From Psammoneis japonica (Eukaryota), in assembly GCA_008632985.1 (NCBI GenBank), contig QPGO01000164.1, positions 1 to 64,000 of the forward strand: a stretch of 64,000 nucleotides of DNA, read 5' to 3'. Numbering within the stretch: position 1 is the stretch's first letter; each line of letters begins with the position of its first letter. Both the position numbers and the translations under genes were made by a program. Below are positions 2,389-40,398 of this stretch, piece by piece. A model generated the notes under the pieces. The model did no database searches and was not told the origin of the DNA. It worked only from the letters and a program-made list of their open reading frames with translations.

Positions 2389-3010
2389 AGAGAAATTGTC
2401 CGTTTTGTCGAAAACCCATCGAAACGGATAGAAACTCGCCAACAACGACACTGAACACTCACCATGATGGGCTCGTGCTGTCCCTGTTGGTCTGGTCTGA
2501 CGGAGGTGGCCAGTGTGGACATTGACGCTCCTTCTTAAATTGTGTGGCAAGTCATTTTGGATCTGGATGCCTCTCCATCCTTTCTCTCTTCTGTCGAAAC
2601 TTTGGAACGATCCGGCGGGCCACAGGATGTCGTTTGACATGTGGGAACCAAGTGGAAAGAGTGTCGAGTTTGTCACGGGGACGAGGTCATTTTGAGCAAG
2701 ACTGCAACCAAAATCAACCATGCTGGAGATTCATCTTATGAGGTTCACATTCACAAACATTTTGATGAGGGGTCAACAGCGGCAGACATTGCAAACATGA
2801 GCGCACATTGATGGTGGAGACCCCACCGGCTCTGAATCTTGTCGGCTTGCTTGTTGGAACCTTTGCAATTGCCACTTCTTCAACATGGAACAAGTTGTTG
2901 GAGTGTTTTGGAATGAAGTCAGCTCAAAGAGCTTTTCAAGAAGAACTGTGAGATTGTGAAAAAGAATCTTTGAAATGATGCCAAAAGGATTCATCATCAA
3001 GTGCTGAATC
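2389..3010 (+). pseudogene. Hypermutated inverted copy of the SRPBCC gene at 60309-60868
   Basis: Colinear with the reverse complement of about 60320-60960. Differences are dominated by TA->TG/CA and CG->TG/CA, with stops and indels. Confidence 0.9.
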
Positions 3011-3640
3011 ACAATGACTTGAAAGAAAGAGAGTCAGCCAGGATGTGCATCACATCATGATTTGTCATGCAGCAGCCAATGCAGCACCCACATTGCTGCA
3101 TCTGCACCTGCAATGACACACACACAACTGCAATCACAACAAATCACAAGCTGGGCTGTTTTGTTCATTAAGACAAAATGCATGCTCACAGAGAGTGCCC
3201 TCAATGCCGGCTGCAACCAAGAACAACTCACCTTTTTAGCTGCAGCACTCATGTGGGATGTCCTGAATGTACAAGTGCTTGAACAGGATGTGACACTGGC
3301 ACTGTCATTTGACATGGCATGTGTTGCAGCACACAATCTCAAGAGATGATTGTGTCACCTTTTTCAAGAAAAATGCAAGAGAGCATTTCAGACATTGACA
3401 AGCTTGCCATGATCGACTTTCTCAACAAGGTGTGAGAAAAGGTTTTTAAGCAGCATTTGGGGGGGGAGGGAAGTGGTTGGTGCTGGACCTCCCTGAAATT
3501 GCAACAAGCAAGGAGTGGTGGAAATTCTCTCTAGTTTTGCAGATGCATGAAATTCTGTCCACCAGAAAAGAAATTTAAAAGCGGCGATGATGGAATGGCA
3601 TTTTGTTCCACAACAACGGTGAAGACACTGGCCACTCCTG
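3010..3640. repeat. Hypermutated inverted copy of the intergenic segment at about 57620-58240
   Basis: gacttgaaagaaagagagtcagcc (3016) matches revcomp gactcgaaagaaagagaatcagcc (about 58240). aaattctctctagttttgcagatgcatg (3522) matches revcomp aaattctctctagttctacagatgcgtg (about 57730). Confidence 0.8.
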
Positions 3641-4226
3641 CATCAAACATTGCTGGGCACAGGGGCGTGTGAAATGTGCAAGGGAAAATTGATTGGAAGC
3701 AGCATTCCAACTCTTCTGAATGCACAAGAAATGTGTTTGTTGCAGTTGGGGGCCACGAATCAATTGCCGGCATGTTTTTTTCTGTGTGAAACATGCTGTT
3801 TTGTGTGCCATCTTGCAGAGTCAGTGCCAGGTTCCACCGCAGCCAGAAATGGCATGTTTGCTGTCATGCCATCTGTGCAGATGGCCACACTGGAGAGCAG
3901 CACCACCTCTCACTGAATTTGAGGACACTGTGGGTGTTGCCACTTTGCAAAGAGAATCACATTGGTGGTTGGTCTGCACAATTGTTTCTGCACATGTTTT
4001 GCACTGTCATCCATCCCCACCACCTCCAGCCCAATCCTGACCAGCCTGACTCAAATTTCATTGGGTTTGAGCAGGTGGCAGGAATGGATGATGACAATGC
4101 AAAATGTGCACAGGCGCCAGAAACTGTCACACAGACAGACTGCCACTGCGATTCTCCTTGCAAGTGGCAACACCCAATTGTGCAAGATGGCAGCCACAGA
4201 ACAGTTTCAAGTTGTTGCTTCTGCTG

Positions 4227-5110
4227 GCAATGTCATGTGGTGTGCAGCTGATGCTGTTGTTGTGACAGCAAACAGCGCACCAACTGCCATTGATGACTGG
4301 TGGAGGAGCCAGCAGCACAAAAAACACAATTTTGCAAAGGAAAAAAAAAAAAGCATCAGCATGACAAACATCAACAAAAAGAGAACTTGGAGCTGCAAAA
4401 AAACACCAATCATTGCCATCTTCACAGTTGTTTGGGATTTTTGTTTGTGTGCACAGTTGCCATGTTTCCGGCAATTCCATGGCTGCCAGGTTGTCAGACG
4501 ACAAGGCAAGGTGCAACACTTGGTGCAGCAACATGGACAAGGACAGCAGCACCCCAAAACAATTTGACAGCAACAACAAGCAACATCACTTTGCCTCATC
4601 TCCATGAATGTTGCCGGTCTCCAACCTTCCATGGTTGCTCCAGAAATGTTGGCATTGAGCGACCAGCTCCAGGTGGTTGTGAGACAATTGCTTGCTTCAG
4701 ATCCTCGCATCATTGCACTTCAAGAGTGCCCCTCTGCAGATTGGGCATTGCAAGCAGCAGCCTTTGACAATGACCACGTTCTTTTAATTAGATCTGAAGT
4801 GTTGCGGGTGGGTTGTGTCATCTTGTTTGTCAAGAAGGAGCTTGTTTTGGAATGAGTTGTTGAGCTGCAAGAGAAGAGACACCAGCCATCATGGCAAAAG
4901 CAACACACACTCTCCAACAACTGCAACATCCATGTTGCATCTGTGCACTTGGAACCATTTGTGCAAGGTTCTTTTCTTTGGTGAGACAAAATGCAACAGT
5001 TGCAAAGTGTTTCTAAAACAACATCAATGCCAATGACTTTTTGGGCAGTGCAAATGTGAGAGATGCAGAAGATGTTCCTCAATGCTTGGAAGGAACTTGG
5101 CGCCTTGGAC
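4227..5110 (+). pseudogene. Hypermutated copy 1 of the TDP2-like EEP gene at 56052-57067
   Basis: Residual translation MNVAGLQPSMVAPE...LLASDPRIIALQECPSADWALQ matches the intact gene. Stops and frameshifts present. Confidence 0.9.
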
Positions 5111-5144
5111 AAATCCCCAGAACAATCAATTGCCAATTCAATTG

Positions 5145-5563
5145 ACTGCAATTAAGGGGAGTCATCATTTGCCACTTTTTTGACTTAAATTTGACCAAAC
5201 AGCTTGTGATTTGTGTGATTTTTCTTGAATTTCACTGTGCTTCTTAGTGGTGAAAACATCAAGCCACAAGTCTGCGAAGGAGGTGGTCTGTCTGTCAACT
5301 CTTGTCAGTTTTATGTCCGTTGTGTGTCAAAGGTCACACACCATGAATCAAATGTTTGTGGACGGACCACTGCATTTTGGAGCCATGCCGACATTGCTGC
5401 CATTGCCATGTTTTGATCATGGCACCTGAAGTTCTTGTTTTTGTGCACAGTCGGAGGTGAATGCAAACAATTTTTGCACTCAAAAACAAACACTGCAAAC
5501 ACTCTTGCTCAAATGCCATGGCAATTCTGGATAAATGCGGGGATGACCCCCCTCAATTGCAGT
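5145..5563. mobile_element. MITE-like element with about 22-bp inverted ends
   Basis: 5145-5166 actgcaattaaggggagtcatc vs revcomp of 5542-5563 actgcaattgaggggggtcatc (20/22 match). No coding capacity. Confidence 0.5.
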
Positions 5564-7205
5564 TGTCAATCAATTGCAGCACACCCACCCATTCCCCAAT
5601 GCAAAGAAATGTGCAACTTGTTCAAAGTGCAACAATGGCGAAGGAGACACACCACCACACGAGTGTCCTCGAAATCATTTTGGCAAGGAAAAAATGTGAA
5701 CGGAAGATGGCCAGACCACTGTCATTCTCTCAACAACATTGGACACTGTCAATGATCCACGTGCATCCAGCATTGCACCTTTTTGGAGTTTTGTGGGGGT
5801 CTTCATGAAATCAACAAACTCCTGCAGACAATGTTTCTAGCCAACAGCAGGAAAGCGGCAACAAACAGAACATCAAACAGCAAGCCAAGTGTGGGCAAAC
5901 CTGGAAAACTTTTCAAGATCATCAAGGTGTTGGCACTCCAACTTGGAACAGTGTCAAGAATTTCAGTTTGACAGAGGGCATTGAAAACATCACCCTGCTT
6001 GCTTGGATGGGATGAGTGCACCCAAGGCTGAGTTCTGCAGCTGTGTGGCCCCTCTCCTGCCATTTCTTTCTCCAGCAGATTTCTCGAGGAGGAAGAGGGC
6101 TGGTCAGCAAGCTCGTTGATCATCATTTGTTTGTCCACTTTCTCAATGGCTGCAATCAAGCTCACAGTGGAGACAAAACCACAGCAAGGCCTTGGAAGAG
6201 CTGGAGTGGGTCATCCTTGGATTGGCCATCCTGCAAATCAGAGAGAGGATTTGACTGTTTTTGCATCTCTCTCTTTTCACCCCTGTCAACAACAAGAAGC
6301 TTGGACATTGCAACAAACATGCTTTCTTGTTTTGAAGCATGGACAAAACAAAAGCGAGACCACCCAGGTGAAGGGGGCTGCACCAGCAACAATGACCCCA
6401 CATTCAGAGTTTTTCTGCGAGCATGAGTTTTAACAAATGTGTGTGTTTTTTGTTTTTTCTGTTGCAGCATGCACACAAAAGAGCAACAGATTTGCAAAAC
6501 TCTTGGCGCAGCAACCTGTGTGGCCATCTGAGCAAACACTTGATGAGCAGCCCTGTTGACAACACAAGTCATGAGTTGGCAAAGTTTCAAGAGCCAGAGC
6601 TCTGTCATGTCAAACAACTTTGATGGGTCAAACAATGGGTTGGGCGAGTTGAGGAGATTTGTTTGCTGTTTGTTGTTGATTGTGATGGAAACAGAGAGAG
6701 AGAGAGAGAGAGACAATTGTGACAACAGCCAGAATGAAAATGAGAAGGAAGCTCCTGCTCCTCATTGTCACAACATGAGCAGCTGCACGACTCTTGCTGA
6801 TGTTTCTGCACACTTGCAAAAGAAGCTTGGCGCCAAAGCAATGTGCAGGAAAACCCAGTGTCCACCATTGGCCCTGCCAACTGTGGCCAACAAGGACCCT
6901 GTAATGTGGTTGCGAATGTGGGTTTGACTGTGCTAGCCTTAACGGCAGATGGCCATCACAGCATTGAGAACAGGACAGTGCTGTAGATAGATAAAAGAAT
7001 AGAACACTCTAGCTAGTGGTGGGTAGAGAGCAATGGAGAGTAGATAGAACCACACCTCGTCCCGCGTCTGTCCATTTGTCCGCTCTCCACTGGTGTTCCC
7101 CTGCTCGCTGACTCAATCCAAGAAATTCCAATTTCGTAACTTTCCGCTTTTTGCTTGTGACAATGAGTTCTTCAGGGAAAACACTCTCACCATAGAGACC
7201 GTCAT

Positions 7206-10979: not shown

Positions 10980-11445
10980 TGAAGAGTGCCATTTGCAAAA
11001 TGTCAGATCAAGAACTGTGGGAGCACAGTTGAGCCAAAGGAGTTGCTTTCAAAGGACATCATTGATGGCCGTGTGACACCGAAAATGAAGCCAAAGGCGG
11101 TCAAGCAGATGCGGCCTGGACACGAGCCGCATCCGCTTCAAAACTTTGGGTCCAACTTGAGAAGCCTCAGAAAAATTTTTAAAGACTCATCAAGACCGGG
11201 CTGATGTGGACAGTGCAGCACTTGCTCATGACCATTGCTTGCATCCAATTGCTGCAACATCATCGCATGGCTGCCCCAGGTGGGAGGGATCAGAGGCCGA
11301 GAAGTTCGTCCAGCAAGACATTGAGGATGACAGCATTTTGGATGTGAAACCCGTGACACTTTGCCAAACCAGACCAGAATGTCAAGCTTTTCCTCTTCGT
11401 ACATTCCAAGACCACACTCATCAAGCAAAATGGGCAAAATGACTT
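10980..11445 (+). pseudogene. Degenerate two-repeat ORF of unknown function, possibly transposon-associated
   Basis: Two internally similar segments (KDIIDG...RPGHEPHPLQNF and QDIEDD...LCQTRPECQAFPLRTF) interrupted by a stop/frameshift. His/Cys occupy positions consistent with former Tyr. Confidence 0.4.
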
Positions 11446-12639
11446 GGTTGCATTGGCTTAATTGCTACAAAAAGAAAAAGCAGGCAAAGTGGAACGGGCA
11501 CAGGTGATTTGCATTGGTTGTCATCTCTGGATGTCAATTGTTTAGATTGGCTCAAATCTTGAACAAAACACTTGCCATGCAGCACAATGGCCAGCACCAG
11601 TCATTCTGTCCTTGGCTTGCTTGTCGCTCATTTTAGATCTCACCAACAAGTTGCACCTTGATCGTTGCCGTTTGTTCTGCACTGTCACCATGCCATGCAG
11701 CCAGTGTGATGCAGTGCACTGTTGAGCCAATTGATTGATTGTTTGAGACCACACGCAGTGTTGTCACAATTGTGCCCACAACACCACGACAATTTTGCAG
11801 GTTTTGGCAATTGCTGAAACATGGCAGGTTTCAGCAGAATCTGGCAAAACACGCAGCAGGTTTCAGCAATTGCTCAAACATGCATTTTTGGTGATGCACG
11901 GCTGGAAGGTGCTGTTAAATGTCAGGGGTCTGTGGTGATGAAGGGGTGGGTTGGCAGGAATGTGTGGTGAGAGGGTGGTGCAGAGTGTGCTGAGTGATGG
12001 AGAGAAAAAAGACCGGCCAAGGGTTTTGACAGATGGTCAAGAGGAGGAGTTGTCATTGACAATTGGCTTGGCGTGCAGAGAGGTGGTTGGAGAGAGTGAT
12101 GCCAAAGTCAAGGTTGAAGATTTGTGAGGTGCGCAAAGAAGTTAGGGTGTTGCGGCATGATGGTGGGAGGTGCCAAAGTGGTTTGGTGACACTTGTTGCT
12201 TCCAGGCATTGCTTGAGTGGGTGAGGAAGTTGAAGGGGAGCAGGAGTGAGTTTTTGAAGGCAGAGAAGGAAGCTCAGGAGTTGGAGAGGGAAAATCAACC
12301 AGCCCAAGGTGGTTTGGGAGGAAGAAGAGAGGGATGGAGGAGGATGTTGTGGCGGAGACACCAAAAAAGAAAACGTGGAAGTGGCGTGGATGCCACCCAG
12401 GCAATTGAAGACAAAAGGAGGAGGAAAGTCATGCTTGATTGACAGTGTTGACAATGTTGGAGCAGCAGGCGGATGACACAGTTTGGCCAAGGAGCCAGGA
12501 GGTGGGGGAGCTGGTGGTGTTGTTTGATGTCTGAAGAACATGCCCAGGCAAACTAGAAATTGTGATGCATTTCAAGTGTGGAGGAGGAGACACATTCACC
12601 AAATTGCCTCTTTCTGATGTTGGCAATCACTCACATGTT

Positions 12640-15310
12640 CATGGCCTGAGAATTTGCTGTGGAGCTTGAACATGGAGTTCTGCAGGAGGCCCAATGTTGC
12701 ACACAGTCATGAGGGGGGCGGAATGCATCACAAAGAAGAAAAGAAGTGTGAGTCTTTGTCATTGTCAAACAGCAAGGATGATGACCTCAACAATGTTTTT
12801 GTAAAATTCAAGGTGCACAAAGGTGTCTGCAATTGCAATGGGGTGGCTAACACAGATCTGGGAGATGAGCTCCTGACCAAGAGTAAAAAGAAAAAGGCAG
12901 TGCAAGCTGATGGTGTGGAGAGCCTCAAGGACACCAACAACAAGGGCAAGAAGTTGTGCCAGTTGCTCACAAAATCCTTCACCAAGTTGATCTGAGCCCT
13001 GCCTGACAATGTGCACAAATGTGATCAAGTCATGCAAGAACAAAAAAGTGGGTCAAGGATTTTGGTGCACAAGATCAAGAGCACCTGAAGCACTGCTCTG
13101 AACAGAGTGAGTGGATGACTGCCAAATGCACTTCAAGAAGAGCTGAACTGGAGCCAGGTGGCTTTAAGAAAGCTTTGTTTCACTTCAATGAGCCAGAAAA
13201 TTTCAACACCAAAATTTGGACAGATTGATGACATTCATCACCTGGATGAGTTGCAGTTGACAATGTGTGTGTGTGTGAAAAGGTCCCCGATAATGAAAAA
13301 TGGAAGGCTTTCAAGTTTGAGTGTGCCACAAGGATGACACCACAGAGAACATGTTGCACAGTGCCTTCAAGCAGCACTGTTAGAAGAAGTGGGAGACAAG
13401 TGTGGGAAGTGCAGCCAGAAGGGATGCAAGGTGCTGCAGTTTGGTCTGAACAAAAAGACTGCCATGTCAAAAAAACTCAAAGGCAACTGTTGGCATTGCA
13501 ACAAGCCTAGACACCAGGCAAGAAAAAGACAAAGGAGAACAAGGATGACAAGGAAGCCAGTGATGTCACCACAGCAGCAGTGCTTGACTTTCTCAACTTG
13601 GTCAAGGAATGCAAAGGCTTGCTTGTAGTCTCCTTCCAGGCAAGAAAAAGACAAAGGAGAACAAGGATGACAAGAAAGCCAGTGATGTCACCCCAGCAGC
13701 AGTGCTTGACTTTCTCAACTTGGTCAAGGAATGCAAAGACTTGCTTGCAGTCTCCTTCTTTGACAAGCTAGAGGACAATGATGAAGAACCCAAGAAGAAA
13801 CTGAACAGGCTCTTTGTCCTTGTGCAAGTAGAGCAAGATGTCAGACAACAAAGATGGTGGTGGCATGAGCAAGGTCCTTGTGGGCTGATGTGGGAAGAAG
13901 AGGACAGTGCCCCACCTCAGGCAATTTGATGTGACTCAAATGGCAAATCAGAAGACAAGTCTGATGATGACTTGGTCAACAAGTTCTGTGAGATGCAGAA
14001 GTTGCATGACAAGGACAACAACAATGGTGCCAATGCTGATCCATTGCCAGAAGGGTAAGTGTGTGTCCAAGGTGGTGACAAAAAAGACAGTGCCCAAAAT
14101 TTGAATTGTCATTTTGACTCAGAAAGCAAGTTAGAAGACATGTGTGGCAACCCAATGACAGATTTGAGGAAATGCTGACATGTCAGGCAGTTGGAACAAG
14201 ACAGCATCAAGCTGCTTCTGCACTCTGGATCAACAGCACATGCAAGCCAACAGGACTTCTAAAGGCATGAGGAACCTTGAGGAAGTCAACAAGACTGTGA
14301 AGGACATGCACATCGGGACTTCAGTGGCACAATTTGAAAGTGTTCATTCTTTTGAGTGTTGAGAAGTGGATGGGGCAGTGGCTGTCATGGAGATGTGTGA
14401 CCAGCCATTTTCCCCCTGCAACACAGCAAGTCTCACAAAGTTGGTTGAGAAAAATTGCACCCTGAGAGTGCCAAGGCAGACCCCAAATGTGCCATCATTC
14501 TGAGCGTCCTGATGGCACAAAATTGATTTTTGAAAAATCTGTAAAGACAGCCTCTTTCACATGGAGGTGAAGTGTTTGAGGCATGCTGTGGAAACAAGTG
14601 TGGGTGTGTCAACCAGATGGAAAGAGGTGCACAAAAGGACTTGTCAAAGAAAGTCCATGTGAGTTGCACGCACATTTCATTGAACCACATGGGTGAGTGC
14701 ACAATGAAAATGGCGGCAGCAGATTTTGGTTGGAAATTGAAAGGAGTGCTGCTGAAGACCTGCAAGTGAGTTTTGCATTGGAACAAAGGCTGCAGCAAAG
14801 GGAATGGCAAAGACCAGCAAAAAAGAAAGCAGCAAGACTTAGCCAATGGCTTCTGCTTGGACATGACAAGGCTGTTGGAATTTCATGGGTCAACCACCAA
14901 TCTGCATCAATCTCACCAACTCCAAAACTCACCAAATGGATCACAAACACATCAATGCTGTTGCTGCATCACCATGTCATTCTGGTGCAGAAGCTAAAAA
15001 GTGAGCACAAAACACACATTCATGGAGAATTTGCAAACAGCTTCTTTTTTGTGTGTTTTCAAAAACAGCACATGGTTGTGGAAGCTGGATGTGATTCAAA
15101 TTTTTCAAGCACAGTTGTGTTCAAACAAGAGGTTGCCAGCAATGGCAACAGCATGTTTTGGCAGAGAAAGAGTGTTGCACCCACCAAAAAGACAAAAGAG
15201 CAGCTGTTTTGCAAAACAAGTGCAGGGACACAGTCCTTGCAGAATGGGGAGAGCAAAGCAAAATTCATGAGCTTTCAGAGCATGATGTCAAAAAGACAGG
15301 CAAGCTAAGA
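12640..15310 (+). mobile_element. Degenerate Ty1/copia LTR retrotransposon (gag knuckle, protease, pre-integrase/integrase relics)
   Basis: Zinc knuckle GNCWHCNKPRH (about 13482-13515), protease-like LLLHSGSTAH (about 14212-14241, cf. LLDSGST.H), and GAG-pre-integrase-like H...NHMGE...A..FGWKLKG...TC (14670-14765), in copia order. No intact ORF and no confirmed LTR pair. Confidence 0.65.
13515..13760 (+). repeat. Direct duplication of about 121 bp inside the copia relic
   Basis: ccaggcaagaaaaagacaaaggagaacaaggatgacaa...gcaaag.cttgcttg.agtctccttc occurs at about 13515 and 13636. Confidence 0.9.
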
Positions 15311-16458
15311 CAGCTGGCAGCATGCATTGGATCGACAGGAAGTGAGAAGTGAGAGGGAAAGAGAAAGTGTGTGTGACCACTTTTGGACTCCCTCAACTAA
15401 ATGTGCATTGGTGCATGCCTGTCTGTCTCACTGGGTGTGAGTTTGCCCCACACCTCAACAGGCAGGCGCCTCTCCAGCTCCAGCCAATCCAAACCCTGCC
15501 CCCGCCTGTTGGAATTCACCCTTCCAGTGACCACTTCAGAGCCACTTCAGTCCTCTGAGGTCTGATCATGAGGGCAAAATAAACAAGCTTGTTGTCACAA
15601 TGCTTTCTAAGAGTTGAAAAAGAACAGCAATGATGGCGCTTCTCCGGCAGCCCCCACATCGTGCTTCGTGCAGAGCACATGAGTGCTGATGCATGAGTCT
15701 TCTTTGCACCATTGCATTTGGGCACTTGAGCTTTTAATCTTTTTTTGAACACATTTGCCTGCTCCTGCTGACCAATGATTTGATGCTTCTCTGGACGGCT
15801 GTGTCTGTGTGAAAACAGGCAGATGAAGACAACAGAATTGATTTTCTCGCCACATTGGCCCATTGTCACTGCCACAGCAATTCTGGCTATCTTCAGACTG
15901 TGCACTCCTCAACTTTTGTGTGAGCTTGAGTCTGCAAACGATTTGGAAGTCACCAAATGCAATTGGAGGTTTCAGAGTCGTCCCTGATTTTGATGTCGTC
16001 GCTCTTTTGGATTCACTCTGTTCCTCTCCAGACTTGTCTTTGGATTCCACCATTTTCTCTGGCGCAAGGATCGTGAAGATTCAAGATGATCCACCTTGAG
16101 GACAACCTTCAAAAGCAGCCATGGTTGAGGCTAAGGTCAATCTTCCGACTCGTCAGTGGCGCATCAGGCAGATTTGGGCGATGCATGCCACTGCAGGATT
16201 GGCGATGCGAGCTCTCGCTCCGGCATCTTTCATGCAGGCCTAACTCCAACCCCATGCAAAGCTGCCTCTGCAATGATGTAGCTCATAACCCATCTAAACA
16301 AACAAGCAAAAATCCAACAACAAATTTCGCGACCGACCGCCGATGGCCGACCCGCACCTCTCATCACAACCAGGCTCCTTCTCTCGAACCAAGCCATCTC
16401 TCTCTATCCTGAAGAAGACGTGACGCATGTATAAAAGCTGCTTTGGCATGGCGCAGAG

Positions 16459-19400
16459 ATGGCGCCACTGCCGCTGTCTGATGAGGAAGAAGGTGTGAAC
16501 GTGTTGGAGCTCGGCGGGGAGATCCGTCCGCATCGTGGTCTCGCCACCCTCAGAGAGATCTTTGCACGGACAGCAAGATGAGTGCCCGACAACGTAGCCC
16601 TTGAAGATGCGACGGGAAAGCAGAAGCTCTCCTGCGGCGAACTTGATTGTCTCGCCGACTCGTTGGCCGCCAGGCTGCGATCGCGTTACGGCGTCGGACC
16701 CGAATCCCCCCTCGTCGGCTTGGCCGCCGAACGGACGATCGGCTGTTTGGCATCTCTGCTGGCCGTTCTAAAAGCCGGCGGGGCCTACGTCCCTCTCGGT
16801 TTGCGACTTCCCGATGCTCGCATCCGAACCGTGCTGGAAGATGTTTCGCCGTCGGTGGTTCTGTGCAGCAAGGCCTGTGCCGAGCGTTTTTCCAAACTGG
16901 GTGTTGAACAGCTGTGTGGTCGATGACGACGATCTCATCCTCCGCCGTGATTCGCCGACAGTAGAGATAGAGGAAACGGTCGTAGGAGACAACCTTGCTT
17001 GCGTGATTTTTACATCGGGCACTGCCGGCAAGCCCAAGGGCGTCATGGTTCCAAACTTGGCTGTGGCCCATTACATCGATTCGATGCGGGCCATCCTCAA
17101 CCCTGGGCCCGACGAGCGGGTCATCCAAATCATGGAGCTTGCCTTTGATTCCTGCATTTTTGACATTTGGATGGCGTGGGCATTTGGTGGGACGGCGGTT
17201 CTTTGTGAGAAGTGGACGGCCCTTGAAGGCTTTGGCGAGTTTATTCGCAAACGCAACATTGCAACCCTTGGATGCACTCCGACACAGCTTGGCGCAGTGT
17301 CACCTCAGGATGTTCCCAATTTGCGCGTGGTCGCCATTGGTGGTGAGGCCGTCCCTCCCCCGTTGATCAGAGAATGGGCACAGCACCCTTGCTGTCACAT
17401 CTACAATCAATGTGGACCTGCAGAAGCAACGGCAACTGTGACATCTATCCAATGTGCTCCTGACATGAAACATCCAAAGTCAATTGGGTTTGCAAATCCT
17501 GGCAGGGCAAAGCTTTACATCCTTGATTCCGATGGGGAACCTGTGAAACCCAGTGTTCCGGGCGAGCTCTGCACAGCGGGCCCACAGGTGGCCCGTGGGT
17601 GTTTCAACTTGCCAGATCTTACGGCAAAGAAATTCGTTAGAAACAGATTCTCAAATTCAGCCGAAATGCCAGTCCTCTACAAGACCGGCGACCGCTGCCG
17701 CTGGCTTCCTGATGGCAGCATTGAGCATCTTGGAAGGCTGGATGCACAGGTGAAACTGCAAGGGTTTCGGATTGAGCTGGGTGAAATTGAAACAAAGTCA
17801 CTCGAAAGGAGGGATGTTCGAGCTTGTGCTGTTGCTCTTCGCCACCGAAAGGAAGGCTCTCCATTTCTTTGTGCATGCTTGGTCCCAGAGAGAACGGGCA
17901 CAAGGCTAGATGCGGGCAGTCTGCGATCCCATCTGGCATCTTCTCTTCCGGATTACATGGTCCCTGCTGCATTTGTAGAGCTTGTTACGATGCCGATCGA
18001 CTCCTCTGGCAAAACAGACAGATCTCGCCTCCCAGATCACTCCTTGGCTTCGACGGTTGGGTCACATGATCCAAAGAATCATCAGTCACCGCTTTACAAG
18101 AAACTGCTGCAGATTTTTGCTGATGTGCTGCATCTCGAGCCGCAAGATGTTGGGCAGGATGCTGACTTTTTCATGCTTGGAGGTCAATCTCTTTCAGCCG
18201 CGAGGCTCCTCGGCAAAGTGAGACAAGAATTTGCGACCCGGGTCCGGTTTGCTGAGTTTTTTGCTGATCCCACTCTCAGTGATGTTTTGTCATGCATCGT
18301 GGATGCTGGAGCGACAGACAACATGGACATTGAGGTCTGCCCACGCAGTCAGAGAGTTGGAAAACAGCTTCCTCTCTCCTCGGCACAAGCACGAATGTAT
18401 TTCCTCCATCTGCTTGATCCCAGTTCACCGGTTTACCATGCATCCGCAGTTTTTGATCTGGGAAATGGTGTCGTGAATCATTCTCGCCTTGAAAACGCAT
18501 TCCGAACCGTCATCAGTCGCCATGAGATCCTCCGCTCTTCTTATGGTCATTCTTCAGAAGGAACCTTTCAAGTTGTCCAAGATGACTTTTTGTTTCCCCT
18601 TCGTCAGCTTGACGTGCGCAACATGGAACACGGTGACAGGCAGCTGCGCATGCAGAAAGCCATGACAGACATCACTTCAGCTCCTTTCCACCTCGAAGAT
18701 TCAAGTGCTTTGCCCATCCGAGCACTGCTTATTTGGCTTGAAGAGCAACGCTCGCAGCTTGTCATTGCTGCACACCACATTGCCATCGACGGTCTGTCAT
18801 GGGACATTTTACACACGGAGCTGTCAGCTGCCTGTGCAAATCAACGCTTGCCACTTCTCACAATTCAATTTGGCGACTTCTGCCTTTGGGAGGCGAAGTG
18901 TCGGTGGAGTGCGGCCTGCCGAGAACTGCTAGATTGCTGGAGGGAGGAGCTTGGGGAGAATCCCGAACCTCTGCGCCTTCCCACTGACAGGCCCAGACCT
19001 GGTCTCCACTCGAGTGAAGGTGGGAGCTTCACGAAACATTTTCATGGGATTGCGTCTCCACTCCGTGCAGCTGCAGCTGCACATGCGACGACTCCTTTCT
19101 CCATCTTGCTCTCTGCATGTTTCATTTTGCTCCATCGCCTCACCGGCCAAAAAGAAATCATTGCAGGTGTCCTGTCATCAGGACGATCTCACCCGAAAAC
19201 AGAATCCCTCATTGGCATGTTTGTCAACACGCTGCCAATCAAAGCACAACTCGGCACGAATCTCACATTTTCGGAGCTCGTTGCGAAGGTGAAATGGGTG
19301 ACTGCCATGGCATTTGATCATCAAGATGTCGCGTTGGAGGATCTTGTGAAGAGGCTGATTCATTCAAGATTGCGGGGACAGACCCCACTTGTTCAAACGA

Positions 19401-22400
19401 TGCTGACTTTCGACGAATGTGATGAAAACGGTGCTCCAGGCCCAGTGTTTGATGGGCTGAAAGTGGCGGAGCTCGAAGTGGAGGAGACCAAGACAGCGAT
19501 GTTTGATTTTTCGATCGGCTTCAGTCTGAGATCTGGTGATCACTTGCTCGTTGAAGCCGAGTTTGCCACAGATCTGCTCGATCGTTCAACAGTTGGGCGG
19601 GCGATTGATCAACTTGAAAGCATCCTGCGGGATGCGATCCTTGCAGAATCGAGCATCATTGGAAAGCGTGAGGAACTGGAATTGGTTCAAAGAGATTGTC
19701 CGGGTCGCAACAGCATCACTGTATTCCAAAGATCTGCCGAGGATTTTTTGGAACCCAGGACAACCGAGGAAGTCAGGCTAGCAGCGATGTTCTGCAAACT
19801 GCTGGACCTCCCACGGGTGGACATGCGGGACAGTTTCTTTGCACTGGGAGGAGACTCACTCCTAAGCTTTCAGCTGGTTGCCTTGCCCGGAGCCTTGGGT
19901 GCTGTCTTAATGTGACTTCTGTGATGGAATTTGAGACAGTGGAGAAGCTCGCTTCCTTTCTGCTTTCTGCAGCCTCTTTTGGGCCTGATGTGGAACCACC
20001 TGCACAAAGGGCCAAATGTCGGCTGGTTGACCTGACCCCAATCCAGAGATGGTTTTTCGGTGAGCACTTTCCAGCGCCTTCACACTGCAACCAGTCAAGG
20101 ATGTTTCTGGTTCGGAATGATGTCGATGAGGCAGCTCTCCAGGCTACACTCCTGTCACTTGTCATCCATCATGACGCTCTGCGCTTCTCTCATGAAATAA
20201 AAGGTCGTCACGCGAGGCAGATCCAGCATGCTGATGATCTGGCGTCAAGTTTTCTCACATTCCGCATCGAAGACAATTTAAAGGAAAGCTTTGAAGGGCC
20301 GCTGATTGAAATCGAACGCGAAACCGAACGAGATCAATCATCGCTTGATTTGGAGAACGGACCCACAATGGCAGCAACACTGTTCATGAGGCCATCACCT
20401 GATCCACCCCCACTCTCGATCGTTGTTCATCACCTTGTCATTGATGGGTCAGCTGGAGAGTGATTGTGGATGACCTCAACATGGCCTGCTCCCAACTTGC
20501 GGCCGGGGGACCGGCGAGCCTCCCGGCAAAATCGCACTCCTTTGCACAGTGGACATCTGCGCCACAGAAGCATTCGAAATCCTGTTCCTTGTCAAATGAG
20601 CTTGCGCGCTGGCACTGCGCAGAGGCATCTCCTTTTAAGTTGCCTTTGCGAGCTTCGCGGGACAGGCACAAGAGGATCGAGCCCAGAGAGGATTGGATGT
20701 CATCTTTGGTCGAATGTGCGAACATCGAAGGGCTGCTGTCGACCACAGCCGTCAAAGATCTAGTGGTCGCGGCGCTTGCCTGGAGTCTGGTGGAGCCATC
20801 TCGTGAAAGCAGAGATGTTTGCATCATCGTTGAAGGTCGTGGCCAAGAATCGGGCATCATCGCCTCTGGGTTCGACCTCACTGGGACTGTTGGTTGGTTC
20901 ACGTCCATCTTTCCTGCACGCTTTCAGTTTGATGGGGTCACAGACGCTGGAAATGTGTTCCGCACAGCCTTGGAACAGCTTCGAGAAATTCCAAACAATG
21001 GCATCGGCTGTGGAATTTTCAAGCATCCGCGCTGTGGATGTTCCTCTCTTTCCAATCATCATGCTTCTCAGGTTGCCCTCAATTATCTGGGGCGCTCCTG
21101 GACCCAGGCTAGTGCATTGGATGGCATGGACTTGACGACGCTGGATTCTTTAGACTCCTCAGACCTCATGCTTTCCTCATTGGATGGCATTCCCACCTCA
21201 GATTGGGATCCACGCAACCAGTCGGACGATTCGATTCTCGATGTATCATGTCACATGATGGGATCACGTCTCGAGATGAGTTGGCAGTTTCGTTCTGACC
21301 TGCTCTCCCGTTGTTACGTGAACGAGCTCGCCGAACGCTTTTCCACCAACGTCACCGCCATGATCGCGGCGGTCTCCAATGGCGGACCCCGAGCGCCGGG
21401 AATTTTTGTAGCGAGATTTGGAAAGAAGATTGAAGACGCAATCAACGCCGTCTGGGCAAAGCACCGCCACCACGATAACTTCCACGGATTGTCCGTCAGC
21501 GCCGTTGTTGATGGTGAGATCGTGTTTGCTGGAGGCCATGGCTTCCGTGACGCTGAGCGCAGAGTCCCAATTGATCCGCACACTGTATTTTCACTCGGAT
21601 CGGCGGGGAAGCCCTTCGTTTCTCTTCTGGGGGCCATCTTGGTTGACGAAGGAGTCGTCGACTTGGACGCTCCTCTTGAACCGACGCTGTCCGAAGCAAA
21701 GATATCACTTCCGGAGATCTATGGACAGATGACGCTCCGCCAACTGTTTTCCATGACAGCCGGGATTCCCTATGTAGAAACTCATGTTGAAGAAACCATG
21801 GACGATCCATTCGAAATTTGCAGGTCAGCTATTGAAATTGTTCACAAGCCCGGATCCTGTTACTTTTATAGCAATTTCAGCTACGCTCTTGCGGGTTATA
21901 TCCTTACGTTGGCAGCTGGGTGTGAAGAGGATTCTATCTGTTTTGAAAACCTCCCCGAACAATTTCTTGGGTTGCTCGAAGAAAAGGTTTTCACCGCAGT
22001 GGGAATGGAAGATGCCAAACCCGAGGGATTTCAGTTTCTCTCCAAGAATGGTGCAATGTTGGGATCTGATCACGTGAGAGGTGCGGTAGGCAGCGCTGCC
22101 ATGCTGCCGTCAGGTCCAGTAAAGGCAAGCGTAACCGATACAGCTCGTTTTCTCATCACCGAGTTCCAACGAGGACTTTCACCGGCAGGGTGTCGCGTCG
22201 CTTCGGCAAGTCGCGTCTCTGAACGCTTCAATGTCTCCCAGAGTCAGGGGTCCGACTGGGGAATGGGATGGTTTCGTGACAGGCATCACGGCTTCCTTTA
22301 CATTTCAGGCCAGTGGGCGGATACAGTTAGCGGGCTCAAAGTAGATCCTGTCAGTGGGTTTGGCTTGTCCTATGCTGTTTCCGTTTGCGACAGTACGCAG

Positions 22401-23617: not shown

Positions 23618-24289
23618 AGTGGCATCATAAAGTACTCTGGGATTTTCTGCTGTTCAACTACGAGCAGTTTACAGACACACAAAAAAAACCTCCGGTCTCA
23701 TGAATCATGAAACCAAAGCCTCGCTTGGCCTGGTCGCCTCACCTTTTAGTCTCGTGTACCCTCAAGTGACGGGTTGAGGATTGAGGATCAACATAAAACA
23801 AGACGAGGATTGTCTCCTTTCAGAGCACATCGATCCGTTCATTACCGGTACTACAGTATCACTGTTCTCGGCATATCATGGCAATCGGTGTTTCTTTCTG
23901 CTCCCTCCATGTGGTTGCATTGGCCGTTTAGGATCTCAATCCTAGTTGCCTGCAAATGTCAGTTAACGATCGTCACTTGAATCATTTGGGCGACGACACA
24001 GACTTAATCACCATGACAGTAGTATGAGAACGCTGCAAATTCAGACTAGTTGAACGCAGCTCTAAATGTTAATTCTTAAGTGCGAAGTCATTCCTTAAGA
24101 TGAGTGTGTGTGCAGTGTAATGCACTGTTGTCTTGAGCCATTGTGTGCCAATGCATCAGGCACATGGCCAAAACCAAAACTACAGCAAGAGCATCACCTT
24201 CATGCTGTCAAATTCAACTGCCTCTTCCACATCATTAATTCAAGGTTACCACTTGAACTTGCATGAGAGCCAAGAAACCAACAGCAATG

Positions 24290-25860
24290 CAGGGGGCACA
24301 ACGGTGGTTGCCTTGAGTGTGCAAGTTTGTTGGGACATCCCAGGGCCCGTCCCCATGATGCATGGTGTTTTTTGTCCACTTGAGGGAAAACACCTTTGTG
24401 GCAGCAGGAGGTGTGGGCAATGCTGGGAGGGGGAGAGACCTTGGATCTTGGCAGGTCCTGGGGAACCTTGTGAAGGAGCGATGTCATGATGGCAGGTGTG
24501 GTTCTTGCTAAAAGGATGGCAATCCTTTGAGTGTGTGAGTTTGTTGGGCATTGGGGGTTTTGGAGTCATGCAGCAATTGGCTTGTTCACATGATGCATGG
24601 TGGTTTTTGTCCACTTTGAGGAGAAGCACCTTTTGCTTTTATGGCAGCAGGTGTTGGCAACGCTGTGAGGGGAGACCTTGGCAGGTCCGGCGGAGCCTTG
24701 TGAAGGAGCAATGTCATGAGGGTGGTGGGTGCAGTTGCACAAAAGGGTGGTGATCCTTGCCCAAAATCAAAAATCTTTTTCAAAAATTGTCATGCTGCGA
24801 ACAGGACACTGAGACTTTGACATGCTTCTCACCATTGAAAATCTCAAGCATGAAAATGTGAGTGCATTGGAGTGCACATCACAACAAAGGCATTAAAAGC
24901 CATGAAAAGCACAAACTTGCCTTTCCCAAATGGTTGGTTCATGGATCTTCTGGGTCACAAACATGTGGTTGCACACACACACACACAAAGTGGAACAACC
25001 TCTGTGGGTGTGCACTCTTCAAGATTTCAACCAAGGTTCTTTCTTCTTGTCATCATTCTTTCTTCTTTCCTTTTGATTGAGGAGAGGACAGGAAATGACA
25101 AAATTTACTGCCTGGAACTGTGTCAAAGCCAAGACTGGCAACATCACTTTGAATTGTCATTGTCCACCACCAAGGACCTTCTCTTCTGCTTCTTGCCTGG
25201 CTTCTTTGAGAAACCTTGCCGGATTTCTCTTGTCCATCAGCCCCACACATCATTCCCAACCATGCAATGCACAATGGTGTCTGGCCCCTTTGCCAGCTGA
25301 TTCTTTCATGTGGTTTTGTGTTGAGGAGCAAATGATTTGGGAAAAGGGACCAGAGGAGCAGCAGTGCTCTCATCCTGCTTGGCATCATCAGATTTTGGCA
25401 CTCCTTCTTGATCATCAGCTGGGGGCAATGGTGTTTCACCACAAGAAATGTGCACATCAAGGCTCATGCTGAGATCCAAGAAGGAATCTTGGTCTGCAGC
25501 ATCACATTCTGGCAAGGTCAACCAGCAATGCTTCAAAAAATGAGCTCCTTGAAGAACATGTCATGCAACTCAATTGTCATCAGATGGACAATGTGCCCCT
25601 TTGGATTGCATCACATGACATTTGCAAAAATGAGCTTTTGGCATTCACCATCAAATCACCAAGGGTGCTGCACTTGCCAAGAAGACAACAAGAGCATGCA
25701 GTGCCTGAGTCCATTGGGTGAGCAAAGTGGAACAACCTCTGTGGTTGTGGCACTCTTCTGGATTTCAACCAAGGTTCTTTCTTCTTGTCATCATTCACTC
25801 TTCTTTCCTTTGGATTGGGGAGAGGACAGGAAATGACAAAATGCATTGTCTGGGAATGTG
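24290..25860. repeat. Degenerate dispersed direct repeats
   Basis: About 24355-24530 resembles about 24590-24760. About 24985-25110 resembles about 25722-25850 (caaagtggaacaacctctgtgg...gagaggacaggaaatgacaaaat). Confidence 0.75.
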
Positions 25861-26384
25861 TGGCTTAGATGCTTCAAATTTTTTGAGCTTCTACCCTCCA
25901 CAATTGTGGGACACTCATCTTTGCTTCTTCTTGCTGCACACTGTCGCAAATGTCCACATCTGCAGTGCCTTCCACCTTCCATGGCCATTTTGATGACTGT
26001 CACTTCTTTCTTTTGTCCCAAGCAATGACACCAGTTTTAAAGCTCCTGCAAGCTGTTTTCAGGGTTGTCCAATGCACTGACAGCCTTCAGCCTGACAGCA
26101 ATCTGTCAAGAGTTGAATTGAGCAGTTTGCTGGTTGATGCAAATGAACGTCTCTGTGGCAAAAGTCAACTGGAGCATTGCTGATTTCGGCATGTGATGAC
26201 AGGAAACATGTGATGTGGGGCAAGTTCATGTTGTTCATGTTCCTTCAGACCCACACCTTTCAGCAAGTCAGACGGACAGAAGTGAAAGGGGCAAGTTGTT
26301 GTTGCAATGTTTAAAACAAGCCCTGGGGGAGGGGGGGGGGGGGGGGGGCACTGACCACATGTTGTGCTGGGTTTTGTGCTTGCC

Positions 26385-28625
26385 AGGTGGTCAGTGAGTG
26401 CCAGCTTGGGTGGTTGATGCAAGGTTGGGATGGCCCCACATGTCAAGATGTGAGGACACAAATGAACTGGGCAGCAGGTCAGGAGGTGCACATGCACATG
26501 AGACAAACAAGCCATCCAGAAATGAGATGCAAATGAAACAGCAGTTGACGTGTGCACCATTGCCTCATGGCACTCATGCATGGAGGATTGCATTGTGTTG
26601 TGGCAGCCAGAGCAGAAACAGCAGTTAACGTGTGTGCTGTTGCCTTGCAGCGCTCATTGCTCATGCATGGAGGATTGCATGACATTGTGGCAACCAGTGC
26701 AAAGTTTTGTCCTTTCTGCTCAAGAGCCATTGCACAAGGTCCCCCACAGCCTGAGAACACACAAACAAGTTGCTCCCAGATTTGCTGGGCACAGTCACAT
26801 GCAAACTCCAAACCCAACCCGGGGGTCCCCCAAAAAGCACACATGTCATTGCAAACAAACTTGAAGCTGCTCACACTCTCACAAGCAAAAATGTCCAGAC
26901 TGCAACATTTGCAACCTTCTTGCATTCAGTGGGTGGTCAGTGAGTGTGGCTTGGGGGGTTGACATGAGGTGAGGATGGCCACACATGTTTTCAGAAATGA
27001 GGACACAAACAAACTGAAGGGAGTTGGTCAGGTGCGAGCGCATGTGAGACAAATGAAACATGCAGAAATGCTGACACAAGTGAAACAGCAGTTGTTGTGT
27101 GCACCATTGCTGTTGCCACACAGTGCTTCTCATGCCGGTGGCATGGAAAATTAACCACAAAATTTGTGGTCAACCAACACAAAATGAGAAACAGCTGGTG
27201 TTTGTGCGCAGCAATGCCAGCAGCAATGAGGTCTGGTCATTGTTGCTTGCACGCATGTTGGGGGCAGGTCCAATCTGTCCAATGACTGCCCACCGACCAA
27301 CAAGATTGTCCACTGCCACACAACCCGACTCATCCCAACTGCTGCGTGCACTGCCAACACATCAGCTTGAAGACAGAGATCACATTTTGCGGTGCAAACA
27401 TGATGAGTCTTGGCGGCGCACTCTTCTCCAGGGCTTGCAGAAGAAGTGTGACGACACACACACACACACACAAATCTCCATCACTCTGGAATCTGTTGCT
27501 GCATGCTCTTGAGGGATGGTTTCATTGTGAGTTGCTTTGTTCTATGAACATCCATCAGAGTGCTGTGGTGGTGCTTCAAGCTCAAAACGAAATTGGTTGG
27601 AGACACATTTTCAATGGGCGTTTCTCCTTGTTGTGGAGTGAAGCTCAAGCACCACACTTGTTGTCTGCAGGTTTGCATCACTCCTTGTTGGACAAGGAAA
27701 GGCGCTTAGATTGGGCTGCCACAATTGGCAGTTTTGTGTGGTCTCAGTGGTGGGAACTCTGGGACAGTCTCACAACGACGCCGTGCATGGGCACGATTCG
27801 GAAACAAGAAAGTCCTCAAAGCACCAAGATGCTGAGGCAAAAGTGCAAGCTATCCATTCAAAAGCATGTGACTGTTTGGCTTGCAATCGATCTGAGTTGC
27901 TTGATTCAGTGTAGGAGCATCTCACTCATTTGACCTGTGGATTGCGCAATTGGTTGGCTGTGGTCAGGCCAATGTTCAAGTGTCCAGCATCCACGAAGCC
28001 CAGCGTCTAGCAGTGAGGGGCACTTGCACCATTGCAAGTTATCTTGGTGTGGCATCACCTCAGGGCAATGCCAATTCAGGCCAGTTGTTGTGTGCTCCTG
28101 CCGCACCCAGTGCACTGGGAGTGTGGGTTAGCTTGTTGCTGGAGTTGCAGGGTGGAAGCGCAGCAGCACTTAAAATTAGACTTTTGGTTTTGTTTTGTCC
28201 AATGACCACCCAAAGCAGAAAAAATTCATTTGCACTTGCCACACGCAAACACAAAAAAGTGGCCAACATGCCGTTGTGGTCAACATTCTGTGCCACTGGC
28301 ATGTGTGGAGGATTGCACAACATTTTGATGGTGGCTGGTGCAAAGTTTTGTCGCTTTCTTCCACACAAGAGTCATTGCACAAGGTCCCAACCCCCTGATG
28401 ACACACAAACAAGTCAACATCAAGTTCAAGGCATGCAGTCACTTGCAAACTCCACACCCAACCCGGGTGTTGCACAAAAAGAACGTGTTCCCCTGCGAAG
28501 CAACACACAAAGCTGCTCACACACTTGCGCACACTCACAAGCAAAAATGTCCAGACCACAACATTTGAAACCTTCATTGAAACCTTCATAAAACTTTTAT
28601 GTCACTTGACCCGGGTGGTCAGTGA
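26385..28625. repeat. Tandem units of about 545 bp starting GGTGGTCAGTGA; second unit interrupted by a LINE fragment
   Basis: Unit starts at about 26386, 26932 and 28613. 26660-26920 aligns to 28305-28575, and 26386-26570 aligns to 26932-27110. Confidence 0.75.
27150..28260 (+). mobile_element. Degenerate 3' fragment of a non-LTR retrotransposon (Ambal-like)
   Basis: Cys/His motif relic (..EDRDHILRC) and QNEIGWRHIFNGRFS.LW..AQ...W....WELW..HNDAVHG, resembling diatom LINE C-termini as I recall them. A-rich end near 28250. Confidence 0.55.
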
Positions 28626-37242: not shown

Positions 37243-38379
37243 GACACCTTACTGTGATGCTGGAGACCGGAGAGAAATCGTCGCACCCGCTTTTCTTCGA
37301 CCATGGAGATGATGTGCGCGCGAGACGATTGGGAGATTGGGAGACACAACACACAATGGGGGACGATTGACAGACTTCCAGCACAAACAATGCTGCACGC
37401 ACATGATTTTTTGAACAGCAGCTGCCCAGACATGCCCCCCAACGTGATGTGTGGCAACACTGCTCCACCCTCTGCCCCCCTGCAATTTTTTGTGGAGGTG
37501 TGTCAGCACCACCATTGCATGTCAGTGCAAGCAGATTCTGGCAGTGTGGCGGGACAGAAGTGTGTGGTGTCAACGTGTGGGCAGCAGATGCCAGCATGTG
37601 AAATTGTTGCTTGCAAGCATCCTGTTCAGCTCAGGATTGAGAAAACAGGGCAAAGGTGCTGTGGCTGGCTCCACATCACTGTTCTCTGCTTCATTGGAGC
37701 TGTTGCAGGTGGCTGAGCACTGGGCATGATCTGAGCATGTTGGAGTGGTCACGGCATTGGCTTGAAGGCAAGCGACATGTGCTGCTGCTCATTGTTTCCA
37801 AGGGATCAGCCACAGAAAGAGCTCTGGGTTTTTGTGTGTGCATGCATCACAAACAACATCACAAAAAGAAAATTTGCAAGTTCACAATTCAGCATGAGTG
37901 GCAGATGTGCTGAACACTGCAGTGTGGAGCAGTCTGCCAAGGGTGTGGGCACTCACTTTGACAGACAAAACAGCATTGGGGTGGCCTCCAAGAGCCAGTT
38001 GGCCATGTGAACCTGTGGCCATGGTGCAGAGACTGGCATTCAAGTCTCCTGTTTTGCCTGACATGCATTTCTCACCTGTTTTGTTGTTTGATTTTGTGTT
38101 GCAGAGGCGCGGCAGTCCCAGCTCAGGCTCTGTCAGCATCGGCACTTCACAGTTGATGTCAACAATGCACTGCAGACACGTGGCACATTGTTGGCCTTTG
38201 TGCCAGTCTGGTGGTGTGTGACAATGGGTTTGCAACTTTGGAGAGCACAGCCATCATGGCAGAAGGAGACAAAATGTGCAGAGCAGGTTGGCAAGCTGCG
38301 CCTGATGGCAGAGCTGTCATTCGGAGACACTGTTCAGACAAAACATTTGAAAGCTTTGGCATGGTGGCTGTGCAATCAT

Positions 38380-38950: not shown

Positions 38951-39114
38951 TGTTGAATGAGGGTTTGTGCAGAAGTGCCATGGATGTGTCTCTTGACACA
39001 TGATGTGTTCATGCACATTCATGTGTGCTTTGTTCTGCCTGTTTTTCTCCAACAACAACTGCTCTGTTGTTCCCCATTGTTGTTTTTGGCACCACATTGT
39101 ATCTGGTCATTGGC

Positions 39115-40364: not shown

Positions 40365-40398
<34 letters not shown>

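Follow-up and report, generated by a model that had tools for sequence, protein, structure and literature searches.

TpA erasure and the sites that survive it

The question raised by contig QPGO01000164.1 of the diatom Psammoneis japonica is what has removed almost every TpA dinucleotide from parts of it, and why those that remain are mostly of one kind. The stretch analyzed, called the window below, comprises positions 1 to 64,000 of the forward strand (GenBank assembly GCA_008632985.1, 91.4 Mb). Ordinary genes (pseudouridine synthase, M48 peptidase, asparaginase, STT3) alternate there with kilobase blocks in which TpA and CpG have both been lost and CpA and TpG gained. A first-pass annotation, made from the letters alone, had observed that the TpA left between 3160 and 5320 was mostly YTAR (Y, pyrimidine; R, purine), the one context that is neither TAY nor its complement RTA, and had concluded that the A of 5'-TAY-3' was mutated with an enzyme-like trinucleotide preference. 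Rates obtained from young transposons show that the two strands of a TpA are hit independently of one another, each at a rate set by the base 3' of its A: C and T are about alike, G comes next, and A is either below G or level with it. In YTAR both strands lie in a slow context, which is why this class is the last to be erased.

Between 3160 and 5320, 13 TpA were counted where base composition predicts 158.5. Eleven were YTAR, a share for which the local frequencies of xT and Ay predict 0.31 (binomial p 1.1e-4) and the TpA-normal DNA of the window 0.153 (p 6e-8). Sites of this class include those at 3169, 3237, 3447, 3532, 3576, 4785, 4789 and 5014; the others are GTAC at 3270 and TTAT at 5312. 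All the survivors and both exceptions listed by the first-pass annotation were present, each within a few bases of where it had placed them. The features concerned are as follows.

2436..6900, unstranded: erased block that holds these sites, a mosaic of decayed repeats (hidden Markov model segmentation)
2401..3011, + strand: mutated copy (81%) of 60321-60922 in reverse orientation (self-BLAST)
2995..3634, + strand: mutated copy (71% identity) of TpA-normal 57624-58261 in reverse orientation (self-BLAST)
3270..3271, unstranded: the GTAC exception, where the intact paralogue has TA and another short-read contig, from an allele or a paralogue, has TG
4229..5073, + strand: mutated copy (74%) of TpA-normal 56358-57172 in reverse orientation (self-BLAST)
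5152..5556, unstranded: dispersed repeat of about 400 bp (more than 30 genomic matches among those listed, mostly 74-81% identical)
56052..60922, - strand: TpA-normal paralogous segments that serve as stand-ins for the ancestral state (self-comparison)

The observed/expected ratio (o/e) in the first block is about 0.06 for TpA and about 0.20 for CpG (statistics for 2688-6900), and its 19 TpA (2480-6930) comprise 14 YTAR, 2 YTAY, 2 RTAR and 1 RTAY. With TA in the paralogue and TG in the other contig, GTAC at 3270 is a fast-class site that by chance has not been hit here. The segment 56358-57172 overlaps an exonuclease/endonuclease/phosphatase open reading frame (ORF; PF03372), which suggests an origin from a long interspersed nuclear element for this pair. 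Some genomic copies of the 400-bp repeat stand in adjacent inverted pairs. Where the erased blocks were annotated (a part of them), they map to repeats and decayed copies, and intact DNA is spared. One short-read contig matching 3271-3319 carries TA>TG at 3271, and CA and TG are swapped in it at 3300-3301 and 3306-3307; it is an allele or a paralogue whose version of these ancestral sites was apparently resolved on the opposite strand.

Because circularity was to be avoided, blocks were then defined by CpG loss alone, without reference to TpA (seven blocks, 19,852 bp once 150 bp had been trimmed from each edge). One more CpG-poor segment, the eighth (35034-35687), is rich in TpA and was excluded from both the erased and the intact sets; in 35001-35500 the TpA o/e is 1.17 and YTAR makes up 20 of 44 TpA, the reverse of the neighboring blocks. 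After normalization the NTAN classes survived unequally in the seven blocks, with an o/e of 0.123 for YTAR, 0.039 for RTAR/YTAY and 0.028 for RTAY. In the intact DNA (28,299 bp; overall TpA 0.55, CpG 0.97) the order is reversed, at 0.304, 0.60 and 0.74, respectively, so that the rarest class there is the commonest in the erased blocks. The four NCGN classes, used as a control, were flat (0.14-0.16) in the same CpG-defined blocks, and CpA/TpG was enriched at 1.84. The erasure and its YTAR survivors are, with near certainty, a real and strong pattern. The further erased blocks are given below; in one of them YTAR is not the majority.

11136..15935, unstranded: second erased block; 31 TpA, 20 YTAR
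24253..28586, unstranded: third erased block; 19 TpA, 12 YTAR
37371..41351, unstranded: most depleted large block (TpA o/e 0.02); 5 TpA, 2 YTAR, an exception to the YTAR majority
46399..51296, unstranded: erased block with a decayed copy of the leucine-rich-repeat gene at 31976-33412; 8 TpA in its CpG-poor parts, all YTAR

Rates in young copia families

Survivor counts at saturation are an indirect measure, and young elements were therefore sought for direct rates. Paralogue pairs within the window (70-87% identity) give the ranking that the YTAR survivors had implied, with changes at 46/92 TAC, 39/91 TAT, 20/64 TAG and 6/44 TAA; these pairs are noisy and near saturation, so the rates were taken from young families instead. 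An RVT_2 search of the assembly yielded copia family A, whose youngest copies are about 99% identical, and a DNA search added older copies down to 78%. A real copy was used as the reference, and sites were kept where three real copies agreed; copies C37 and C92 acted as agreement filters, with C90 as the fallback. C140, C293 and C2 were dropped as too diverged, C334 for common descent with C27 (22/22 same alleles), and C118, C444 and C16 because they carried almost no hits. The fit used 17 of the 27 mapped non-reference copies (155 sites, 2,349 site-copies) and a competing-risks model with one hazard per strand. Another copia family, with RVT_2 matches to profile positions 3-243, stood outside the context analysis.

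In family A the relative per-strand rates were 1 for TAC, 0.91 for TAT, 0.50 for TAG and 0.20 for TAA (site-bootstrap intervals of 0.38-0.72 for TAG/TAY and 0.15-0.27 for TAA/TAY). Two unrelated families, D and E (347 sites), gave 0.31 for both TAA/TAY and TAG/TAY, and survival of 22/76 YTAR, 9/90 RTAR, 6/92 YTAY and 3/145 RTAY. Family C (79 sites, common descent likely) gave 0.30 and 0.38, respectively, with wide intervals. That TAY is hit about three times faster than TAR is thus a solid result in three independent element sets. YTAR sites were nonetheless changed in 89 of 353 site-copies of family A and 54 of 76 of families D and E, as the first-pass annotation had allowed; YTAR is slow, not immune, and TAY is an approximately threefold preference rather than a motif. 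The proposed TAY/RTA target is accordingly sound as a TpA-specific preference that composition does not produce, and fails as an exclusive one, for TAG proceeds at 0.3-0.5 and TAA at 0.2-0.3 of the TAY rate.

A test of strand choice, which is independent of survival, gave the same answer. RTAR became CA 278 times and TG 103 times in family A, and YTAY became TG 57 times and CA 15 times; the corresponding counts in families D and E were 61 and 20 for RTAR and 64 and 22 for YTAY. Adding an R/Y effect of the 5' base did not improve the fit. The fitted rates predict the survivor rank of the window's ten tetramer classes (rho -0.79, p 0.006), among which survival runs TTAA > CTAA > CTAG.

Beyond the trinucleotide, the rate was lowered mildly and strand-symmetrically by T at -3 (factor 0.62), T at -4 (0.73) and A at +2 (0.78), and TAAA was nearly untouched (0.02). 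The trinucleotide preference proposed earlier therefore needs amending: the base 3' of the A does set the rate, and part of the survival is a symmetric A/T-tract protection that reaches past it. The protection from -3, -4 and +2 resembles an influence of A tracts on the site as a whole. The symmetry, the sparing of TAAA and the place of TTAA as the window's best survivor would all suit a mutator that needs TpA only, with the flanks acting through DNA physics (A/T tracts that resist opening or base flipping, or that position nucleosomes). Such an account is improbable as a whole, since the +1 effect is strand-specific (0.43 for A at +1 against 0.90 for its mirror, T at -2) and the base at +1 decides which strand mutates. 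Moreover, TAG is slow as well, though it contains no A tract, and CpG decay proceeds without such flank classes.

The same rates bear on the notion that the YTAR excess is an artefact of ancestral composition, codon or stop-codon constraints, newly made TpA, or long-read assembly error. Seven survivors of 3160-5320 align to the intact paralogue; four are TA there and three are TG, so that some may be newly gained TpA, and the sense-strand bias of family C (below) may reflect selection and shared descent. Against this, no class is rarer than YTAR in intact DNA, and the bias was seen prospectively at TpA sites of a real reference with no synonymous skew (303/1598 vs 500/2768). Short-read contigs also match the block: over 2400-7000, those from one DNA run covered 30/30 bins, and 51/75 were at least 99% alike, although this run may derive from the source sample and thus not be independent. 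An artefact is largely refuted by the direct rates, and little weight is left to it.

Spectrum, strands and timing

Changes at TpA were near-pure A>G/T>C: 940 single transitions, 5 double changes and 13 transversions among 958. Both strands were hit, with 465 TG and 475 CA among the single transitions. Changes were essentially confined to TpA, at 82-299 per 1000 for TAN, 1-17 for other NAN and 21-44 for CpG. Copies of family A ranged from 0 to more than 90% of TpA hit; copy C119 had 114 of 153 TpA changed, and its 3,998 positions otherwise held 6 changes at CpG, 8 further transitions and no transversions.

The context rates exclude decay of N6-methyladenine at ApT, against which the first-pass annotation had argued: TAC (299 per 1000) was hit like TAT (276), and the other NAT were spared (AAT 17, CAT 7, GAT 7). 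Its remark that ApT was not visibly depleted needs a small correction, in that the o/e of ApT is mildly lower in the blocks (0.78 vs 0.94 in intact DNA); ApT is not the target, and the drop is probably about the amount removed by the loss of TAT/ATA.

Outside TpA, private A>G changes were more frequent in 6 heavily hit copies (39/11778) than in 9 lightly hit ones (26/20085; p 2.5e-4). In the heavy copies these off-motif changes fell before a pyrimidine in 33/5376 cases and before a purine in 6/6402 (p 8e-7), a bias absent from the light copies (14/9216 vs 12/10869). Because the off-motif changes keep it, the 3'-pyrimidine preference is a property of the mutator that is separable from the 5'-T requirement. 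Neither non-CpG C>T (p 0.40) nor transversions were raised in the 6 heavily hit copies.

This spectrum makes an error-prone polymerase an unlikely source. A Pol eta- or Pol iota-like enzyme copying silenced repeats could insert G opposite the template T of TpA; five Y-family loci are present in the assembly (6 PF00817 matches), and hits scattered over both strands without runs would fit repeated small patches. Pol eta is reported to be error-prone at template TW and to make the WA hotspots of somatic hypermutation, TA among them (PMC6423074). However, WA includes AA, which is no hotspot here (AAN 5-17 against TAN 82-299 per 1000), and transversions make up just 13/958 of the changes at TpA. 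One quarter of Pol eta errors in vitro are reported at C/G (PMC6423074), and the changes of that class were, as noted, not raised.

The process acts after insertion, on integrated chromosomal DNA, as the long terminal repeats (LTRs) of individual elements show: the pairs of 17 elements differ at 133 TpA, 41 CpG, 50 other transitions and 11 transversions. (The other two of 19 pairs were left out: C92 lacks a second LTR in its stretch, and C334 is a duplicate of C27.) These differences, together with the two-strand symmetry in three of four families, exclude RNA editing before reverse transcription. The 5' LTR had fewer TpA than the 3' LTR in 12 of the 17 elements and more in 2 (p 0.016), for example in G000:C21:570501-577070, C244, C173 and C388 of family A. 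Copies C103 and C5 have the opposite layout, with the interior half-erased and both LTRs nearly spared.

TpA hits co-vary with CpG decay along the copies (rho 0.50 over 83 bins, which are non-independent), and TpA loss runs far ahead of it. The 5' LTR is often the first part to be hit. One region of the window may be read as an earlier stage of the erasure.

16500..21690 (gene 16814-22493), + strand: region resembling a nonribosomal peptide synthetase; TpA 0.16 (lost), CpG 0.84 (largely kept)

The gene carries a beta-lactamase-family domain at its end. YTAY is the commonest class among its survivors (20, vs 12 YTAR), perhaps owing to codon constraints.

Identity of the damaged base

Read on the other strand, A>G at TAY is T>C at RTA, and sequence cannot tell a lesion on A from one on T. 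The sense/antisense factor was 0.74 (0.61-0.90) in family A and 0.98, 1.13 and 1.65 (1.15-2.36) in the other three; being inconsistent, it does not name the damaged base. Sense-strand TG/CA counts were 475/465 in family A, 108/106 in D and 80/69 in E, with family C (391/185) as the exception. The earlier assertion that the A is mutated cannot be deduced from these data and stands as a reasonable guess.

The main competitor places the lesion on thymine: either the T of 5'-RTA-3' is modified (oxidized or alkylated) and pairs with G, or a T:G-specific repair enzyme, whose usual role is to counter deamination of 5-methylcytosine, over-corrects replication mismatches at TpA. Vsr, which acts at CTAG in E. 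coli, provides an analogous T:G over-correction. All counts fit this account equally well, and the co-variation of TpA loss with CpG decay would suit a methylation-linked system. Family A, moreover, has more sense-strand T>C, a bias that was not replicated in D, E or C. A T:G glycosylase tuned to CpG should favor TG->CG over TA->CA, yet CAN>CGN occurred at only 4-13 per 1000. 5-Hydroxymethyluracil is reported to be linked to transposon silencing in dinoflagellates (PMC11572971). A search of the assembly for Tet_JBP gave no match, but it was run without a positive control and is hence uninformative; the thymine-dioxygenase-like domain found belongs to a fusion protein (L097, below) that resembles enzymes acting on small molecules. 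On balance a thymine lesion is rather unlikely, though it is the strongest of the alternatives.

Taken together, the first-pass reading is partly supported: the direction it proposed was correct, the motif was overstated, and its choice of damaged base is unproven.

Comparison with known systems

The closest precedent is the TpA hypermutation of integrated DNA of nucleocytoplasmic large DNA viruses (NCLDV) as well as of virophages in Bigelowiella natans (bioRxiv 10.64898/2026.01.13.699255). According to the available text of that preprint, the de novo rate is raised about 1000-fold, the process is active in some lines only, and ADAT2 is proposed as the enzyme, without proof. Both systems show near-pure T:A>C:G transitions at TpA that yield TpG or CpA; both are confined to foreign or repeated DNA in the integrated chromosomal state, and both leave TpA-poor, CpA/TpG-rich clusters enriched in transposon domains. 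They differ in their targets, which here are copia elements, other repeats and decayed gene copies in a diatom, and in extent, with an o/e of 0.02-0.09 against 0.45 in the B. natans NCLDV region. The joint CpG decay, the measured 3'-flank hierarchy and the weak off-motif activity are likewise peculiar to the present case as B. natans is described; the main text of the preprint, in its available part, contains no flank analysis and no mention of diatoms or CpG. Since it agrees in every testable feature, the diatom case is filed with the Bigelowiella kind, with an added flank signature. In the literature searched, which left out most subscription journals, no diatom report was found, and TpA hypermutation was described only in that preprint.

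Repeat-induced point mutation (RIP) of ascomycetes is also a repeat-confined, dinucleotide-specific transition hypermutation that follows insertion. Its polarity is opposite: TpA is made by RIP and destroyed here, and the C>T changes of RIP, mainly CpA>TpA, are not seen (NCA>NTA 0.7-4.7 per 1000). Same-strand runs are also lacking here. RIP depends on RID/DIM-2 and on the pairing of homologous sequences before meiosis; the NCLDV target in B. natans, as described, is single-copy. Diatom DNMT4 enzymes may be related to RID (PMC9998398).

A further comparison is with the TadA-derived adenine base editors (ABEs). ABE7.10 is reported to favor YAY and disfavor AAA (PMC10188366), ABE8e-YA to rank YAY over YAR (PMC12528748), and the RNA edits of ABEmax to favor UACG (PMC8052359). 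The A>G change, the favored 5'-T, the order YAY over YAR and the poor showing of AAA are shared with TadA and its derivatives. The spectra comparison suggested at the outset therefore succeeds for the 3'-pyrimidine preference and breaks down for the acceptance of 5'-C by the editors and for the WA pattern of Pol eta. These editors are engineered and act on single strands, unlike the process here, in which both chromosomal strands are hit without runs. ADAR domains acting on DNA/RNA hybrids likewise have 5'-T as the best neighbor and use a duplex substrate (PMC5389660). RNA editing of the ADAR type would give sense-strand A>G only, whereas both strands are hit in families A, D and E, family C being the exception.

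Proposed mechanism and candidate enzymes

The preferred reading is an adenine deaminase steered to silenced repeats, for which a probability of roughly 0.55 is estimated and for which only candidate enzymes can be named. A repeat-directed mutator would turn the T:A and A:T pairs of TpA into C:G and G:C in chromosomal DNA after insertion. A TadA/ADAT-type or editase-fold enzyme would deaminate deoxyadenosine to deoxyinosine, with a strong 5'-T requirement (at least 30-fold) and a weaker 3'-pyrimidine preference, and replication would fix the deoxyinosine as G. Steering to silenced, methylated chromatin is suggested by the co-variation with CpG decay and by the DNMT5-dependent methylation reported for young Phaeodactylum transposons (PMC9998398). 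Old blocks such as 2436-6900 would also have lost CpG by ordinary decay of 5-methylcytosine, both routes ending in CA/TG. The assembly contains 27 PF00145 (C5-methyltransferase) matches (L172-L191), several with internal stops, with clusters on C297 and C10.

Deaminase-family searches of the assembly gave 9 matches to PF00383 and 4 to PF02137, the latter at 2 loci. An ADAT2 gene is present with Asn at the D108-equivalent (read from its second exon), the residue reported to be needed for DNA activity (PMC10354150); no ADAT3 was identified in the assembly. Genes for dCMP deaminases are also encoded. One of the two editase-domain (PF02137) genes, at C40, is ADAT1-like. The other is a stand-alone gene (L221:1172-2888; G000:C79:344558-345390) with relatives in Attheya, Skeletonema, Cylindrotheca, Seminavis and other diatoms; no dsRNA-binding domain was detected in its protein by Pfam (three frames scanned). 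It is a candidate for the mutator. A guanine-deaminase-like domain fused to a thymine-dioxygenase-like 2-oxoglutarate-Fe(II) oxygenase (L097:313-1785, - strand; match G000:C79:88506-88676) has counterparts across diatoms with about 55-60% identity; the protein was set aside because it probably serves nucleobase salvage. No solved relative was found for L100, and L101 looks, by eye, like RibD.

Several observations weigh against an adenine deaminase of this sort. Same-strand runs, the trace expected of a deaminase that works processively on single strands, were not found (445 observed vs 447 expected, p 0.57). TAA was slower than TAG in family A (0.25-0.56) and by the survivor order of the window, a difference that families D/E (0.62-1.56) and C (0.29-1.79) do not show. 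TadA-derived editors are described as accepting 5'-C (YA), whereas CAC changed at 13 per 1000 against 299 for TAC, and CA was hit at least 20-fold less than TA in the same 3' context. The DNA editor of amphioxus, a natural ADAT2, is reported to prefer GAA (PMC10354150), which does not fit. For ADAR1 on hybrids, TAG was the best of six tested sites, among which no TAC or TAT is given (PMC5389660); here TAG is slow, at 0.3-0.5 of TAY. The bacterial-type TadA gene of the assembly has Asp at the D108-equivalent. The set of deaminases found looks ordinary and unexpanded, and both of the unusual ones that were searched, the L097 fusion and the stand-alone editase, have relatives across diatoms. No deaminase was tied to the TpA process by the evidence here, MT-A70 and APOBEC-like families having stood outside the search.

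A more speculative extension, which is possible but decidedly less probable than the deaminase itself, is a dedicated "reverse RIP" defense in diatoms and perhaps chlorarachniophytes. A natural adenine deaminase would be recruited to silenced, methylated repeats, often starting at the promoter in the 5' LTR, and would read T-A-pyrimidine on either strand of the duplex; its catalyst could be the diatom-wide stand-alone editase-fold protein or ADAT2. If this is true, the enzyme would be a natural genome-wide adenine base editor.

Targeted repeat hypermutation has so far been a story of C>T (RIP, APOBEC), with TpA-specific A>G confined to one preprint on a rhizarian alga; its occurrence in a diatom, as a second case, suggests that such a defense is more widespread. 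New here are the measurement of rates in unsaturated copies, the bias of off-motif changes toward a 3'-pyrimidine, the lack of strand runs and the asymmetry of erasure toward the 5' LTR. The signature (a near-obligatory 5'-T, an approximately threefold preference for a 3'-pyrimidine, near-pure transitions, both strands, no runs) is a direct test for candidate enzymes; it could identify a genome-defense mutator and also tests whether the two algae share one.

Under the genetic code, TA>TG or TA>CA cannot make a stop from a sense codon, and ORFs therefore stay open. Missense changes pile up without stops, so that transposon ages, codon usage and pseudogene calls are distorted in such genomes. 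Several copia families (L192-L211, L064-L092) have copies 95-98% identical, a TpA o/e of about 0.2, normal CpG and long open frames of up to about 2,250 aa; they may be lineages still spreading after most of their TpA targets were gone. Eight metagenome loci related to the copia reverse transcriptase showed no TpA depletion (o/e 0.63-0.86), in a search that favors intact copies and says little on breadth.

Other features of the window and assembly

An 897-aa ORF at 28889-31582 contains tandem repeats of 333 bp, matches a GCM motif (E 1e-6), and has low TpA and normal CpG. A sequence of about 65 bp at 61035-61100 has more than 20 genomic matches, several of them about 1.3 kb apart, and possibly represents the ends of a small element. 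The assembly contains 24 silicon-transporter matches, the best at about 697 bits, which mark the genome as a diatom's; in one 1,511-aa frame (G000:C38:226311-230342) the silicon-transporter domain is triplicated.

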